DNA of 64,000 bases from Escherichia coli (GTDB lineage Bacteria; Pseudomonadota; Gammaproteobacteria; Enterobacterales; Enterobacteriaceae), in NCBI RefSeq assembly GCF_050320075.1, contig NZ_CP190021.1; one strand, 5' to 3'. A model generated the notes under the pieces. That model did not search any database and was not told the DNA's origin. It was given only the letters and a program-made list of their open reading frames with translations. Each line of letters starts with the position of its first letter. The first letter of the stretch is position 1. Position numbers and translations under genes: made by a program. Below are positions 3,158 to 9,821 of this stretch, one piece after another.

Positions 3158-3750
3158 TGAAATCAGACGAAAAATACCAGGTTCCCGCGTGGATGCGACC
3201 TCTGTTGCCGTTGCTCTGCAACACCGGGGGGAACGATCCGGAAGAACTGCTGAATGATACAGAAACCACTGCCAGTGCGAATGTTGTCCGTTATGTACTG
3301 ATAGTTGCTGTGCGGTCGCAGGTTGATCTGCTGCAGCTTCTGTACAGGAAAGGGCTGTTGCGCACAGAGATACCAGGTGGCTTTTCACCGGAAGAAGCGC
3401 AGGCACTCCTGGATAATCTGGTGCGCAGCCATATCAGCAAGGCGCTGTCGGGCGAGCGAATGGCAGCCCGTGACAGAAATGCCGATCTGGCCTGGATTGG
3501 ACAGCAACTGGTCGATGACGCCTGGTTTGTCCGTGCCACACTGGAAGCGCATGGGATGAGCGTCGGAAATGAGAGTCCCCCTGCTCCGCCGGAGACAATG
3601 CCGGACATACAGACACGGGAACTGGTGATGTTGATCAAGCGACTGGCATCATCGCTGAAAGCGGTGAAACCGGACAGTTGTGTGGTGCGTGAAGCGCAGG
3701 ACTGGCTGCGCGACAGAAAACTTGTGGATATCACAGATATTCTCCGGTGA
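3154..3750 (+). CDS. hypothetical leading-region protein, translationally coupled to psiA
   Basis: ATGA overlap with psiA stop at 3154-3157; GGAG RBS upstream; 198 aa; no recognisable motif. Confidence 0.55.
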   Translation: MMKSDEKYQVPAWMRPLLPLLCNTGGNDPEELLNDTETTASANVVRYVLIVAVRSQVDLLQLLYRKGLLRTEIPGGFSPEEAQALLDNLVRSHISKALSGERMAARDRNADLAWIGQQLVDDAWFVRATLEAHGMSVGNESPPAPPETMPDIQTRELVMLIKRLASSLKAVKPDSCVVREAQDWLRDRKLVDITDILR

Positions 3751-4712: not shown

Positions 4713-5078
4713 TTTACTCCCCCGCTCCGGCGGGGGTATGGCCTGCCAGGCCGCCGGAAAACCCTGGCAGGCTTACGCCTGCCTGAAATGCAGGAGGGCC
4801 GCGCCTGCGGCGCTGCCCTTCCTGCCCGTCATGGTGTGAGGCATTTTTCTGTTATGTCGTTTCTGTTGTTCTGATTTCCGGAGGCGGGGACACCTTCGGC
4901 TCCCGGCTGCCTGGCGGCATCCGGTCGTCAGGCCCGACTCCGACAGGCAGCTGCTGGCGCACCCGCCAGTCTCCGCCGAACCCGCTGGCGCGGTTTCGGG
5001 CTGCCGCTACGGTCCGATGTCTGAAAAACCAGGCTTGCAGCGACCGTTCCGGTCGCGCCGCCCCTGTCGCGCCGGAAA

Positions 5079-5395
5079 CGGCGCTCCCTGCACACCTGAC
5101 GGTGTGTAAGGCCACTGCGCCTGATGGCGCAGTCAACCCTTCCGCCGCCACCCCTGCGGCCTGTTTCCCGCTGTGGACTTTCCGGGGGCTGGAGTAACCA
5201 CATCCCGTTTCAGCAGTCCAGGGGAAGATATACCGTCCACAAAATTTTTAGCCATAAACCCGGCAAAAAATTTTGCGTCCGCCCCCGGACAGCTGCCCCG
5301 TGACGTGGTGACGGACGCCCCATCGGAAAGGTCCACTGCGGGGAGAAACCCCGAAGAAGTGGACGGCAGAAGGGGCTTTCGCCCCTCCGGGGAGC
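5079..5395 (-). promoter_or_regulatory. conserved structured non-coding element, copy 1 (candidate single-strand promoter / ssi-type element of the transferred strand)
   Basis: About 320 bp that align at roughly 80 percent identity with 7957-8275; frameshifting indels between copies argue against coding; lies directly upstream of ORF 5441. Confidence 0.5.
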
Positions 5396-6235: not shown

Positions 6236-6299
6236 TTAACCCTTGCCGTCTGCCTGTGCAGGCGGCAGGATACGTTCAGACATCTCACCAGGAGGAACC

Positions 6300-7238
6300 G
6301 TGAGTCAGAAGAAAACCACCACGACGCCCACGCCGCATGATGCCGCGTTCCGGTCGTTCCTGGCGAATCCCGACGTCGCCAGAGATTTTCTGGAACTGCA
6401 TCTTCCGGCGGAGTACCGGCAGTTGTGCGACCTGTCCACGCTGAAGCTGGAACCCGCCACCTTTGTTGAGCCGGACCTGCATCAGTACGCCAGCGATATC
6501 CTCTGGAGTGTGAAAACCACCGGGGGTGAAGATGGCTATGTTTATACGCTCATCGAGCACCAGAGCACCGAAAATCTGTACATGCCTTTCCGCATGTTAC
6601 GTTACAGTGTGGCGGCGATGCAGAGACATCTGGAGCAGCACAAAACGTTGCCACTGGTGATTCCTGTACTGTTCTATCATGGTGAGCGCAGCCCGTACCC
6701 GTACAGCATGAACTGGCTGGACTGTTTTGAGAATCCGGCACTTGCGGCTAAAATATACACAAAGCCGTTTCCGCTGGTTGATATCACTGTCGTTGATGAC
6801 AATGAAATCATGAACCATCGCCGGATGGCCGCACTGACGCTGCTGATGAAGCATATCCGCCATCGTGACATGATGGAGCTGCTGGACAAACTCCCGCAGG
6901 TCATGGTGGAAATTTCAGACGAGCAGGTGCGTGTTCTGATTCATTACATCGTTAACGCAGGGGACTCTGTATCACCGGAATTTATGCGGGCGCTGGCTGA
7001 GCGTCTGCCGCAGCATGAGGATAAACTGATGACTATCGCAGAACGTCTTGAGCAAAAAGGTCGCCAGGAGGGCAGGATGGAAGGACGCATGGAAGGACGC
7101 ATGGAAGGACGCATGGAAGGAGCGCTTGAAAAAGCCCTGGCTATTGCGTGCCAGCTTCAGAAAATGGGGATGACGCCGGAGCAGATTAAGCAGGCTACCG
7201 GACTTTCCGATGACGAACTGAAGAAAATCACTCACTGA
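6300..7238 (+). CDS. Rpn-family (YhgA-like, PD-(D/E)XK) recombination-promoting nuclease / putative transposase
   Basis: GTG start after AGGAGG RBS; N-terminal HDAAFRSFL..ARDFL and core motifs typical of Rpn/YhgA proteins; C-terminal tail domain after a GRME tandem repeat. Confidence 0.8.
   Translation: MSQKKTTTTPTPHDAAFRSFLANPDVARDFLELHLPAEYRQLCDLSTLKLEPATFVEPDLHQYASDILWSVKTTGGEDGYVYTLIEHQSTENLYMPFRMLRYSVAAMQRHLEQHKTLPLVIPVLFYHGERSPYPYSMNWLDCFENPALAAKIYTKPFPLVDITVVDDNEIMNHRRMAALTLLMKHIRHRDMMELLDKLPQVMVEISDEQVRVLIHYIVNAGDSVSPEFMRALAERLPQHEDKLMTIAERLEQKGRQEGRMEGRMEGRMEGRMEGALEKALAIACQLQKMGMTPEQIKQATGLSDDELKKITH
7071..7118 (+). repeat. in-frame 12-bp tandem repeat x4 (ggacgcatggaa) encoding (GRME)4 in the Rpn linker
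   Basis: Three perfect units plus one imperfect unit read directly from sequence. Confidence 0.9.
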
Positions 7239-7249
7239 GTAAACATCAC

Positions 7250-7276
7250 AGCCCGGCAAAATGCCGGGCTTTTTTG
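7250..7276 (+). terminator. Rho-independent terminator after the Rpn gene
   Basis: Hairpin agcccggc-aaaat-gccgggct followed by a T-run. Confidence 0.7.
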
Positions 7277-7299
7277 TCAGCAGGAGCAGAGCAAATAGC

Positions 7300-7458
7300 A
7301 TGACGATTGCAGAACGTCTTATTCAAAAAGGCGCACTTGAAGTGGCGCGGGAAATAGCCTGCCGGCTGCGGGATATGGGCTGGACGCCGGAACGGATTCA
7401 GGAGGCAACCGGACTTTCCGGTGAAGAACTGAAAAAGCTGTTTCCTGATGAGCAGTAG
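7300..7458 (+). CDS. free-standing Rpn C-terminal tail-like small protein (52 aa)
   Basis: MTIAERLIQKG..GWTPERIQEATGLSGEELKKL parallels the Rpn tail MTIAERLEQKG..GMTPEQIKQATGLSDDELKKI; GGAG RBS upstream. Confidence 0.6.
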   Translation: MTIAERLIQKGALEVAREIACRLRDMGWTPERIQEATGLSGEELKKLFPDEQ

Positions 7459-7488
7459 CCTGGCATTCAGCCAGGCTGTGAATCACGC

Positions 7489-7740
7489 TCACACATCCTC
7501 TGCCGTTTCCCCCAGTTCATTTTCCAGTCGCCTGATGATATCTGCCTTACGCATCCCCTGCATGTGAGGCAGCAGGTCACGGACTGAAAGTGCCTGGGTG
7601 GTCCTCCAGACGGTGACGTCCACCTGTTCCGCATTTTCCCAGGCGTGCCATGTTCTCTGCGTCACGCCAAATTCTCTGGCCGCTTTTTCGCGTGACCAGA
7701 GCATGCTTTTTCGCCAGATTCGCAGTTCCCAGCCGGTCAT
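7489..7740 (-). CDS. small HTH DNA-binding regulator (83 aa)
   Basis: HTH-like segment REKAAREFGVTQRTWHAWE; promoter region carries twin palindromes. Confidence 0.6.
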   Translation of the reverse strand: MTGWELRIWRKSMLWSREKAAREFGVTQRTWHAWENAEQVDVTVWRTTQALSVRDLLPHMQGMRKADIIRRLENELGETAEDV

Positions 7741-7754
7741 AAAACACCTTTGAA

Positions 7755-7775
7755 AAAGTGAAAAAACTTCACTTT
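7755..7775. promoter_or_regulatory. palindromic operator-like site AAAGTGAA-N5-TTCACTTT (copy 1)
   Basis: Perfect 8-5-8 inverted repeat just upstream of the HTH gene start. Confidence 0.6.
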
Positions 7776-7821
7776 ATTTTATCATCACAATTGCCAAATC
7801 AGCGCGATAAATAAGTGTAAA

Positions 7822-7842
7822 AAAGTGAAGAAATTTCACTTT
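7822..7842. promoter_or_regulatory. palindromic operator-like site AAAGTGAA-N5-TTCACTTT (copy 2)
   Basis: Second identical 8-5-8 inverted repeat 67 bp from copy 1. Confidence 0.6.
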
Positions 7843-7956
7843 TTTTGCTTGTAAATGTCGTGCGGTTTTCTCTGTTTTCACCTGTGCGGGAGTGGTGTGC
7901 CAGTGACCACCACATGCCATTGTTGTGCCGTCGTTTTTCTTCAGTCGCGCCGTATG

Positions 7957-8275
7957 CGGCGCTCCCTGCACACCTTACGGTGTGTAAGGCCACTGCGCCT
8001 GATGGCGCAGCTGTCTCTGCCTGTCTGCCGCCGCACTGCGGCCTGTTCTCCGCAGACGGACTTTCCGGGGGTACATACATGACCACATCCCGTTTCAGTC
8101 GTCCAGGGGGGAGATGTACCAGCCACAAAACTTTTTGCCGCAGGCGTCAAAAACTTTTGCGTCTGCCCCCGGACAACTGCCCCGTGACGTGGTGAGCGTC
8201 CCCCGTCGGAAAGGTCCACTGCGGGGAAATCCCCGAAGACCCGGACGGCAGAAGGAGCTTCGCTCCTCCGGGAAA
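7957..8275 (-). promoter_or_regulatory. conserved structured non-coding element, copy 2
   Basis: Homologous to 5079-5395; directly upstream of ORF 8317. Confidence 0.5.
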
Positions 8276-8316
8276 TGACCTGGCTGTCCCGGCAGTCGTG
8301 ACGATGAGGAGACAAT

Positions 8317-9168
8317 GTGATGAATCAGACTTTACCCACTGCTGACCTGAATACTGCCGGCACGACAGATGTTATTCCGTCTGTGGCTATCGACCGCATC
8401 ATCGCGCAGCGTAACGAAGGTATTGCACTGTTCATGCAGGCGATGGAATGCCTGGCGACAGCGCGCAAGATTCTGCTCGATGCGTCAGGTGATATTTTTC
8501 TTTACGGGTTTGAAGACTGCGTGACTGATTCCGTTCGTCGCATAGATAAACCGGAAGAAGCGAAAAGGAATATCACCCGTCTTGCCGACCGGAAAATCTG
8601 GGACCGCCTGATGACAGATACGGGCATGTACACCTTCATGAGTTCATGCCAGCGTGATGAGTGGAACAGCCAGCTGATGAGCGACACCTGTCCTGAAATC
8701 ACCCTGGACAATGTACTGGCAACATTCCGCCATCTGAATGCCTGCAAGATGCAGACATTTGAACAGGGACTGATTGATGTCTACCGGAAATTGTCATGGG
8801 ATTACAGAACCAATAATCCCTGCCGTCTGGGTAAGAAAATCATTATTGAAAACCTGCTGTACCGCTGGAGTAACGGGCGTGTGACGCTGGACTGCAGCGG
8901 ACGGGAGGCACTGGATGACCTGGTACGTCCGTTTTATCTGCTGGAGGGGCGCAACGTTCCTGACTTCAGGAACAGTATCGGGGCGCAGTATGGTGAATTT
9001 CTCGGGAACGGCGACAATGTCGGTAAGCTGTTAGAAGGGGAATATTTTACGGTGCGTGGCTACCAGAAAGGGACCGTACACATTGTCTTTAAGCGTTCTG
9101 ACCTTGTTGAAAAACTGAATGATATTATTGCACGGCATTATCCAGGTGCATTGCCGCCACGAGTCTGA
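8317..9168 (+). CDS. hypothetical protein (283 aa), last + strand gene of the leading region before oriT
   Basis: ORF with AGGAGA RBS; adjacent GTG and ATG candidate starts at 8317 and 8320; no confidently recognised domain. Confidence 0.6.
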   Translation: MMNQTLPTADLNTAGTTDVIPSVAIDRIIAQRNEGIALFMQAMECLATARKILLDASGDIFLYGFEDCVTDSVRRIDKPEEAKRNITRLADRKIWDRLMTDTGMYTFMSSCQRDEWNSQLMSDTCPEITLDNVLATFRHLNACKMQTFEQGLIDVYRKLSWDYRTNNPCRLGKKIIIENLLYRWSNGRVTLDCSGREALDDLVRPFYLLEGRNVPDFRNSIGAQYGEFLGNGDNVGKLLEGEYFTVRGYQKGTVHIVFKRSDLVEKLNDIIARHYPGALPPRV

Positions 9169-9180
9169 TTAAACAGAAAA

Positions 9181-9210
9181 GCCCTGGTATTTATGCCGGG
9201 GCTTTTTTTT
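9181..9210 (+). terminator. Rho-independent terminator after ORF 8317
   Basis: Hairpin gccctgg-tatttat-gccggggc followed by T8. Confidence 0.7.
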
Positions 9211-9253
9211 CTGTAATCATCATAATCTCAGAACACGATGTGACATTGTCACA

Positions 9254-9595
9254 TCAATTGTTGTTCATATCGATGCCATCTTTCCTGCCTGAATCTGTCT
9301 TTTTAGGTGCTGTTTTAGAGGAAGAACGGCGGGATGGTTTTTTCGATTCTGCTTCCCGAATAATGTCACGAAGTGCCTTCTCTCCTACTTCATACCCTGC
9401 ATTTTTGAGCGTGTCACGAACATCTGCCAGTGTATAACCCTTTGTCCTTACCAGGACAATAATGTCATCACGAATGGCATCAAGAAAATCACGCAATGTT
9501 TTCCGTTGAGCGGTGAGATCTGGCAATTCCGATAAAGCAGCTTTTGCCAGCTGGATGTCATCATCTGAGTAAAATTTTTTAGAAGCCATTGGCAC
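9254..9595 (-). CDS. hypothetical protein with Lys/Arg/Ser-rich basic C-terminal tail (113 aa), possible DNA-binding protein, directly beside oriT
   Basis: ORF on the opposite strand to the other leading-region genes; basic tail ESKKPSRRSSSKTAPKKTDSGRK. Confidence 0.5.
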   Translation of the reverse strand: MPMASKKFYSDDDIQLAKAALSELPDLTAQRKTLRDFLDAIRDDIIVLVRTKGYTLADVRDTLKNAGYEVGEKALRDIIREAESKKPSRRSSSKTAPKKTDSGRKDGIDMNNN

Positions 9596-9647
9596 TTTCT
9601 CTCCGTTTCATGTTGAAGTCTGATTTTATCATCAAAAACTGACTCCT

Positions 9648-9776
9648 GGCAGGGCTGCGCCCTGCCTCTGCCGTCTGCATAAGACTATGATGCACAAAAA
9701 TAACAGGCTATAATGGCCTGAAAAACGGGACAGGATGTGCAATTGTATAACCGCGCACGCGCGATTATACAATTGC
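9648..9776. promoter_or_regulatory. oriT: origin of transfer (oriT) with predicted nick site on the - strand
   Basis: Inverted repeat ggcagggc-tgc-gccctgcc (9648-9666); 12-bp inverted-repeat arms gcaattgtataa/ttatacaattgc (9739-9776); minus-strand core CATCCTG/TCCCG resembling IncP/IncI nick regions, placing the nick near 9730/9731. Confidence 0.7.
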
Positions 9777-9821
9777 CTCCTGGTCAGGGCTTCGCCCCGA
9801 CACCCCAGTAAGGAGCTGACC

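Follow-up and report, generated by a model that had tools for sequence, protein, structure and literature searches.

The window analyzed here, a stretch of 64,000 nucleotides from an Escherichia coli contig (NZ_CP190021.1), contains two perfect palindromes with identical arms directly upstream of ygeA, a gene encoding a small helix-turn-helix (HTH) protein. These palindromes are probably operators for YgeA dimers, through which the protein would repress its own gene; the proximal site would occlude the -10/+1 region of the promoter and the distal site would have an auxiliary role. The autoregulation suggested for these sites by the initial annotation is supported by phylogenetic footprinting, by the position of the sites, and by the way in which operator subtypes follow the clades of the protein, all of which are sequence-based lines of evidence. 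The elements of this module are as follows.

7755..7775, no strand: O-prox, predicted proximal operator, a perfect 8-5-8 palindrome with its centre 25 bp upstream of the ATG, spanning the predicted transcription start.
7822..7842 (11-5-11 over 7819-7845), no strand: O-dist, predicted distal operator, a perfect 8-5-8 palindrome with its centre about 63 bp upstream of the predicted start.
7489..7740, minus strand: ygeA, an 83-aa XRE/Cro-C1-type HTH open reading frame (ORF), monocistronic and counter-oriented to the early leading-region genes.
7745..7750, minus strand: Shine-Dalgarno sequence AAGGTG, 4 nt before the ATG, read from the sequence.
7776..7784, minus strand: extended -10 element predicted for ygeA (TGaTAAAAT), directly adjoining the proximal operator and lacking a good -35, read from the sequence.

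Both palindromes, read from the sequence of positions 7300-8500, have the form AAAGTGAA-N5-TTCACTTT. The proximal site (AAAGTGAAAAAACTTCACTTT) corresponds to AAAGTGAA-AAAAC-TTCACTTT and the distal site (AAAGTGAAGAAATTTCACTTT) to AAAGTGAA-GAAAT-TTCACTTT, and the distal palindrome extends to 11-5-11 with arms at 7819-7829 and 7835-7845. Their distances upstream of the ygeA ATG (7740) are 14 and 81 bp, and from centre to centre they are separated by 67 bp. They were the sole matches to the 8-5-8 pattern in the 64 kb when no mismatch was allowed, the same two sites were returned when the tolerance was raised to 3 mismatches, and the mismatch-free pattern had no match in 100 dinucleotide-preserving shuffles of the window. 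The pair is far beyond chance. The twin palindromes that the initial annotation had described were thus found at exactly the reported coordinates, in the AT-rich region directly upstream of the minus-strand HTH gene, and the gene is indeed divergent from the ORF at 8317-9168, which encodes a DUF4942 protein.

A tblastn search of ygeA against plasmids returned approximately 2,000 records at >=80% identity and approximately 1,700 more distant ones. We compared 16 homologue lineages (loci are denoted by L numbers), with proteins 30-100% identical to YgeA, comprising 15 plasmid lineages and one Yersinia phage. Four of them were IncI1-type (the window, L006, L011, and L099), and the 11 other lineages were plasmids of Enterobacter, Citrobacter, Salmonella, Lelliottia, Leclercia, Pantoea, Pectobacterium, Yersinia ruckeri, Hafnia, and Providencia, or an unannotated genome contig (L119). 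The plasmid lineages were IncI1-type and other MOBP/MPF_I plasmids, with hosts that all belong to the Enterobacterales. A 21-bp palindrome with the core AAGTG-N9-CACTT was located upstream of the homologue start codon in every lineage (16/16); the initial annotation had named absence from homologous loci in related plasmids as one outcome that would refute its reading. In the 15 plasmid lineages, the centre of the palindrome precedes the ATG by 22-31 bp and the site abuts a TAAAAT-like -10 element, whereas in the phage the distance to the ATG is 42 bp. A second copy was identified in 13 of the 16 lineages; in 12 of these it is located 55-67 bp upstream of the first, and in L018 the two are separated by 813 bp.

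The last case, Yersinia ruckeri plasmid pYR4, has its operators at 2656-2676 and 3469-3489. The gap of 813 bp arises because a RelE/ParE-NadS toxin-antitoxin cassette sits between the two operators, and the distal operator is still nearly perfect. The cassette itself carries twin palindromes of its own, TATTCGTAC-N3-GTACGAATA. A distant paralogue on an IncFII/MPF_I Klebsiella plasmid (L004) also has diverged twin palindromes of the same build, ATGTGCAGAATCTGCATAT and AGCGCAGATTCTGCGTGTT.

The bases of the core were highly conserved, with G4, T5, and G6 invariant in 36/36 half-sites (18 sites tabulated from 12 lineages). Including the Hafnia and phage sites, the half-site consensus was (A/T)AAGTG(C/A/T)(A/C), followed by N5 and the mirror sequence. 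Conservation was concentrated on the operators and the leader: between the window and L006 or L011, two lineages at 84% identity, the operators are 81-86% and the leader 93% identical, in contrast to 56-57% for the inter-operator DNA and 47-49% for the 100 bp upstream of the operators. Operator subtypes were also paired with the recognition helix of the cognate protein. Subtype GTG[A/T]A was found with the T(Q/L)RTWHAWE clade, GTGCA (GTGTA in one half-site) with the ..(W/Y)K(V/D/E/A)YE clade, and GTG[A/T/C]C with the ..YK(R/C)YE clade. Changes in the arms at position 7 were often uncompensated, as in AAAGTGAA / TACACTTT of L006; mismatches of this kind were A.A or T.T at position 7 in L006, L011, and L013, and A.C in L010 and L016. 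The unconserved flanks, the clade-tracking subtypes, and the uncompensated arm changes together argue that the palindromes are protein-binding sites and not hairpins.

The properties of YgeA are in agreement with a role as their binding partner. The product is labelled in RefSeq as 'helix-turn-helix transcriptional regulator' and named YgeA by some sources; the YgeA of plasmid F in the literature is, by the logic of its name, not related to the YgeA of this IncI1 window. YgeA matched the Pfam profile HTH_31 (E=1.2e-4) as well as HTH_3, and 11 of 12 aligned homologues matched an HTH profile at E<=0.1 (7 at E<=0.001), so that the matches are weak but consistent. An AlphaFold model built with 12 homologues as input (pLDDT, the predicted local distance difference test score, of 88) contained five helices (residues 3-12, 17-24, 28-35, 42-60, and 65-76) and no strand, and the top matches in a fold search with this model were all XRE-type HTH proteins. 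Both the sequence profiles and the compact helical fold therefore place YgeA among the XRE/Cro-C1 HTH regulators, and we infer from the dyad symmetry of the operator that it would bind as a dimer. In PHROGs, YgeA belongs to phrog_6962, a family in the category of unknown function. Searches of NCBIfam and PADLOC gave sub-threshold matches alone, those to MqsA and HipB in NCBIfam being far under the cut-off (13-14 bits vs 62-79). No match of YgeA to the KorA/TrfB family was obtained in Pfam or NCBIfam, and neither YgeA nor the aligned homologues matched DUF1870 in Pfam. At the locus, we found no gene downstream of ygeA on the same strand, no co-oriented neighbour, and no co-transcribed toxin gene.

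The predicted promoter of ygeA would consist of the extended -10 element TGaTAAAAT (7784-7776), with transcription starting near 7769. Beside the proximal site, the plasmid lineages have a -10-like hexamer that is mostly TAAAAT and otherwise TAGAAT, TTAAAT, TTAAAA, or TAGTAT, and the extended -10 (TGn) was seen in the IncI1 lineages. We propose that the YgeA dimer reads GTGxA-N5-TxCAC in two major grooves, with half-site centres 10 bp apart and AAA/TTT flanks. A dimer on the proximal site would cover the DNA from the edge of the -10 element to about +15 and exclude RNA polymerase, resulting in negative autoregulation. The distal site, near -63 (near -54 in the lineages with short spacing), would lie upstream of the -35 position as an auxiliary element. 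Its contribution might be cooperative binding or looping, masking of the A/T-rich DNA upstream, or weak activation at low YgeA levels.

Several points weigh against this autorepression model. The distal site is not recognisable in L009, L013, and L017 or in the phage, indicating that the twin layout is not obligatory. The spacings between the sites (55, 56, 57, 64, and 67 bp) are not strictly phased. The -35 region of ygeA is poor and the promoter assignment leans on the conserved -10 alone; the consensus promoter scan, which needs a -35, left the predicted promoter uncalled. Finally, a conserved regulator whose only target is its own gene makes little functional sense, a hint that part of the picture is missing. 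A strict helical phase between the two sites was also considered and rejected, the spacing classes of 55-57 and 64-67 bp being only roughly one turn apart.

Among the alternatives, the sites might form a dual switch similar to that of restriction-modification controller (C) proteins or lambda CI, in which the distal site activates a weak -35-less promoter at low YgeA levels and the proximal site represses it at high levels, giving a delayed and sharp pulse after duplex formation. A usable -35 hexamer was not found in the lineages inspected, the distal site, at about -63 (about -54 with short spacing), is placed beyond the -35 in the stretch from which class I activators work, the spacings fall into two classes (55-57 and 64-67 bp) approximately one helical turn apart, and restriction-modification controller proteins are among the weaker fold matches of YgeA. 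In known C-protein systems, however, the two operators are adjacent and bound as a tetramer, whereas the sites described here are 55-67 bp apart, and even 813 bp apart in L018 after the toxin-antitoxin insertion. Moreover, L009, L013, L017, and the phage manage without a distal site, and the extended -10 of the IncI1 lineages needs no activator. We therefore regard a switch of this type as unlikely.

The palindromes might instead, or in addition to being protein sites, act as nucleic-acid structures, either as terminators or insulators for early-sense transcripts running antisense through ygeA in the direction of the next single-strand promoter or as hairpins in the entering single strand. An intrinsic terminator test made calls on the early-gene strand in L002 (2 sites), L003 (1), and L015 (2), compared with 0.1 expected. 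In the window, a run of seven T's comes after the distal site, which also forms a hairpin in the centroid single-strand DNA fold, and as RNA the distal and proximal sites have folding energies of -9.9 and -6.8 kcal/mol, respectively. The same test, however, made no call in the window, where no more than 2 G-C pairs occur in the stems, and the T-run that follows the proximal site is simply the -10 box seen on the complementary strand. It is the identity of the bases in AAGTG/CACTT that is conserved and not their pairing, as the uncompensated mismatches in L006, L011, L010, L016, and L013 indicate, and a structural role would leave the fixed distance to the ygeA start codon and the -10 box unexplained; such a role is very improbable. 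Even less credence can be given to another binder, either a host factor such as CRP or a second plasmid regulator, with the proximity to ygeA being incidental. GTGA...TCAC does resemble a pair of CRP half-sites, but the CRP consensus has 6 bp between GTGA and TCAC, compared with 7 bp here, and most lineages carry GTGCA/TGCAC or GTGxC/GxCAC. CRP or another host factor was rejected because of the half-site spacing and the variation of the motif between lineages. In addition, the motif accompanies the ygeA family across backbones with unrelated neighbours and into a phage, its subtype tracks the YgeA clade, even though all hosts belong to the Enterobacterales, and no copy beyond the two sites exists on the plasmid, contrary to what would be expected for a shared plasmid regulator. 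Autorepression by YgeA accordingly remains the preferred reading of the two palindromes.

The genomic context of ygeA provides insight into when the gene could be expressed. The 1 kb at 7400-8400 is 95-100% identical to approximately 1,950 plasmid records, mostly conjugative plasmids of Escherichia, Salmonella, and Shigella, and the window represents the leading region of a plasmid of the IncI1 type. The genes of the annotated match begin with ssb, a ParB-like gene, psiB, psiA, and ardA; next, all on the plus strand, come a 144-aa ORF, an 88-aa ORF, a gene for an Rpn-family nuclease, and a short ORF, followed by ygeA (minus), the DUF4942 gene (plus), a 113-aa MobC-like gene (minus), and nikA and nikB. 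Two further features on the oriT-proximal side of ygeA are relevant.

8317..9168, plus strand: DUF4942 gene, a putative oriT-proximal early gene, divergent from ygeA.
7944..8272, plus strand: ssi/Frpo-type single-strand promoter element preceding the DUF4942 gene, with the minus strand, which is the transferred one, adopting the structure.

The latter element is the GC-rich part of the spacer between ygeA and the DUF4942 gene. It is approximately 330 nt in length and 81% identical to 5066-5391, which precedes the 144-aa ORF; it occurs in three copies per IncI1 plasmid, and its core shares approximately 78% identity with sequences adjacent to ssb in other E. coli plasmids. The minus strand of 7944-8272 gives an extended, imperfect hairpin (-136.6 kcal/mol, z = -9.5). 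For the IncI1 plasmids ColIb-P9 and pESBL, three single-strand promoters of the ssi/Frpo 'class 1' type have been described (PMC12672017), and 5066-5391 and 7944-8272 are very probably two of them. An Rfam scan of 7000-9800 gave nothing near the gathering score. Since an element of this type stands before each of the flanking operons, ygeA is counter-oriented between two operons with single-strand promoters.

We infer that the transferred strand is the minus strand in window coordinates, because nikAB and the leading region are on different sides of oriT and the transferred strand enters with its 5' end first. With the minus strand as their template, the plus-strand genes follow the published pattern, in which anti-defence genes, ssb, and related genes of leading regions are oriented to be transcribed from the transferred strand (PMC11541004). 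The template of ygeA would then be the plus, non-transferred strand, and therefore ygeA could not be transcribed before synthesis of the complementary strand. The initial annotation had argued that the HTH protein would be made only after second-strand synthesis; this logic is sound, as an argument from the template strand and the conserved counter-orientation. The mRNA-sense strand of ygeA would be the transferred strand, so that the gene would be silent after transfer until its segment becomes duplex. Synthesis primed on the left of the segment, the 5066-5391 element being one example of a start, would fill it in, and ygeA, once duplex, would fire without repressor, overshoot briefly, and settle at a self-limited level.

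This arrangement recurred among the homologues. In 10 of the annotated loci that were read (L002, L003, L006, L009, L010, L011, L015, L016, L017, and L018), the homologue was among leading-region genes, on the strand opposite to theirs, and within a few kb of the genes for the MobA/NikA relaxase where the locus reached that far. The counter-orientation was kept in every leading-region lineage whose neighbour genes were examined. The flanking genes themselves varied and included those for DUF4942, DUF5983/DUF932, N6-methylases, and Rpn, as well as an anti-restriction gene and a TrfB-like gene; the homologue of L013 adjoins an Rpn gene, and its context is less clear. Variable neighbours combined with a constant place between two early operons might mean, speculatively, that the role of YgeA is tied to its position or to a host target.

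The initial annotation had also suggested that the HTH protein could shut off early expression. The two window sites scored approximately 30 bits each with a weight matrix of the family, compared with at most 7.7 bits in the rest of the window and at most 14.1 bits at other positions of the complete 93-kb IncI plasmid pTF2, both within the range of shuffled maxima. The search for the half-site elsewhere on the plasmid, which had been proposed together with the palindromes, thus yielded nothing above background in the window or in pTF2. Pattern and weight-matrix scans of the approximately 4-14 kb loci around the homologues also detected no extra operator, except for the displaced site in pYR4. 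In the absence of operators at the early promoters, shut-off of the early genes by YgeA finds no support in the sequence, and single-strand promoters of this type are reported to be inactive as duplex, so that they switch themselves off on conversion (PMC12672017; bioRxiv 10.64898/2026.01.09.698686). Known plasmid repressors of establishment genes, such as ArdK (IncW and IncN; PMC9723621) and Reg576 (Bacillus; PMC6294495), have operators at each target promoter. As no other operator is present on the plasmid, YgeA is, as far as can be judged from the sequence, a pure autoregulator.

A divergent sigma-70 promoter toward the DUF4942 gene under operator control was also considered. The sole plus-strand candidate near the sites in the promoter scan, GTGAAA-16-TATCAT at 7758-7785, recurs in the IncI1-type locus L006, and its -10 overlaps the reverse complement of the extended -10 of ygeA. 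It is missing from L002, L003, and L015 and was therefore not adopted as the DUF4942 promoter. In addition, the only ORF upstream of ygeA on its strand (7774-7971, minus) is a 65-aa 'hypothetical protein' in RefSeq (WP_001161115.1), whose coordinates run across the distal operator and into one arm of the ssi element. Judging from sequence comparison, this is probably a spurious call; the equivalent stretch contains stop codons in L006 and has no match in L011, and we rejected it as a real gene.

The comparison of YgeA with characterized regulators showed several partial likenesses. Its best profile match of solved structure was Aca2 of phage ZF40 (PDB 7ezy, 7vjo, 7vjq, and 7b5j; profile match to 7ezy, E=2.5e-4, residues 1-67), and Aca2 also headed the fold search (28-29% identity, weak E of approximately 0.1), with HipB antitoxins, SinR, and C.Esp1396I further down the list. 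Both proteins share the N-terminal motif MT.YEL...RK......AA.E.G.S.R.W..WE. Aca2 represses its own promoter by binding, as a dimer, to two similar inverted repeats there, in which the half-site cores are 10 bp apart, and damps the burst of expression after DNA entry (PMC6765145). However, Aca2 is a protein of approximately 115-125 aa with a C-terminal alpha/beta dimerisation domain (PMC8434428), which YgeA, with 83 residues and an all-helical model, lacks. The operator core also differs, being TTCG-N6/8-CGAA for Aca2 (PMC6765145) and AAGTG-N9-CACTT for the YgeA family, and the Aca2 gene is the last of an acr-aca operon, whereas ygeA is monocistronic and counter-oriented, with its neighbours on the opposite strand. 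With no C-terminal domain, no acr operon, and a different operator, YgeA is not a member of the Aca2 family.

ArdK of IncW R388 and IncN pKM101 and Reg576 of Bacillus p576 resemble YgeA as plasmid repressors located in, or acting on, the establishment region. Both are autoregulated, with a transient overshoot of expression after transfer (PMC9723621; PMC6294495), and control anti-restriction and ssb-type genes, ArdK as a KorA-family HTH protein at direct repeats at the -35 box of five promoters (PMC9723621) and Reg576 as a ribbon-helix-helix protein at four promoters (PMC6294495). YgeA differs from them in its fold family, its palindromic sites, and the restriction of these sites to its own promoter; the different fold and the single target exclude it from the KorA/ArdK family. 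Cro/CI-type regulators and XRE antitoxins (HipB, MqsA, and SinR) share with YgeA the HTH_31/HTH_3 fold and palindromic operators, often several, over their own promoter. Unlike these, YgeA has no partner toxin, divergent cro/cI-type partner, immA-like protease, or co-transcribed gene, and the lack of a co-transcribed toxin gene sets it apart from type II XRE antitoxins (HipB, MqsA, and HigA). C proteins are likewise small XRE HTH regulators with two palindromic operators upstream of their own gene and serve as timers after entry into a new host. The YgeA operators, however, are 55-67 bp apart and the window has no co-transcribed endonuclease gene; with sites 67 bp apart and no downstream gene on the same strand, YgeA does not belong to the C proteins. 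By analogy with Aca2, HipB, and Cro-type autorepressors, the YgeA module would work in the same manner, and its mechanism appears ordinary.

Relatives of the protein and of the motif were also observed in other settings. In a pOXA-48-type IncL plasmid (L005, 4001-4829), a YgeA homologue is directly upstream of an annotated restriction endonuclease gene and overlaps its beginning, in a controller-protein-like layout. This distant homologue is 32% identical to YgeA and 47% identical to the Enterobacter homologue over the N-terminal 60 residues, and the AAGTG..CACTT motif was not found at its locus. In Klebsiella phage LASTA (L142) and Erwinia phage Pavtok (L143), homologues of phrog_6962 are encoded from position 2501 onward, flanked by the genes for the large and the small terminase and on the strand opposite to these; phage LASTA has one degenerate site, CATGTGCATTTATTTCACTTT (15 bits), just upstream of the homologue. 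A scan of 100,044 species genomes for the twin motif returned 120 loci, mostly unrelated contigs of metagenome-assembled genomes and several with regular tandem matches, indicating that the pattern was too loose; among these loci, a ygeA homologue stood beside the motif only in L047, L055, L099, and L119. Two Firmicutes contigs (L111, 5378-5517; L049, 1424-1499) have three near-copies of AAGTGAA-N5-TTCACTT between divergent genes for Cro-like and CI-like HTH proteins. In L111, a gene for an ImmA-like protease follows, and the arrangement looks like the immunity switch of a phage or an integrative and conjugative element. The recognition helices differ from that of YgeA, and the likeness of the motif to the YgeA operators may be convergent. 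In one Salmonella contig (L008, 777-1001), an IS66-family element lies directly upstream of ygeA and overlaps its start, and the operator region is gone; this loss suggests that the module is dispensable for plasmid maintenance.

On the other side of ygeA, a 7-bp G+C-rich hairpin without a T-run (GCCTGGC-ATTCA-GCCAGGC, 7459-7478) is located between the convergent ends of ygeA and a 65-aa ORF (7261-7458, plus strand), and could serve as a two-way transcript end or RNA processing site. The 65-aa ORF repeats the C-terminal part of Rpn (...TIAERL.QKG...GMTPEQIKQATGLSDDELKK.. vs ..TIAERLIQKG...GWTPERIQEATGLSGEELKK..), its equivalents in homologous loci have a weak match to HTH_Rpn_C, and a 57-aa ORF (7319-7492) runs antisense to it. 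The Rpn protein itself (gene at 6243-7238) contains MEGR as a fourfold tandem repeat.

Leading regions of conjugative plasmids are under intense study for their anti-defence genes driven by single-strand promoters. In the literature searched, shut-off of IncF and IncI leading regions is attributed to duplex conversion, with no leading-region repressor described, and we found no paper describing the YgeA protein or its sites. YgeA thus appears to be an uncharacterised and very widespread autoregulator of the XRE family. The present analysis assigns ygeA to a defined family, predicts its operator consensus and its promoter, and outlines a conserved genomic grammar, in which ygeA is counter-oriented, located between early operons, and placed beside an ssi/Frpo element. 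The conserved counter-orientation in a region of single-strand promoters and the distant relationship to Aca2 are points of interest.

A broader role can be imagined, in which YgeA and its operators constitute a conserved 'duplex-state' module of MOBP/MPF_I leading regions, with an Aca2-related repressor encoded on the non-transferred strand between two operons with single-strand promoters, made only when that segment has become duplex, and acting beyond its own control. It might act as a roadblock or insulator against read-through into the oriT-proximal operon, control a host target, or bind RNA in the manner of Aca2. We consider such a module rather improbable; if real, it would supplement the 'automatic' shut-off of the early genes with a layer based on protein. 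If YgeA is solely an autoregulator, the finding amounts to routine annotation, and even then its operator and promoter would offer a ready reporter of duplex formation in the leading region. A further target would make YgeA a missing regulator of plasmid establishment.

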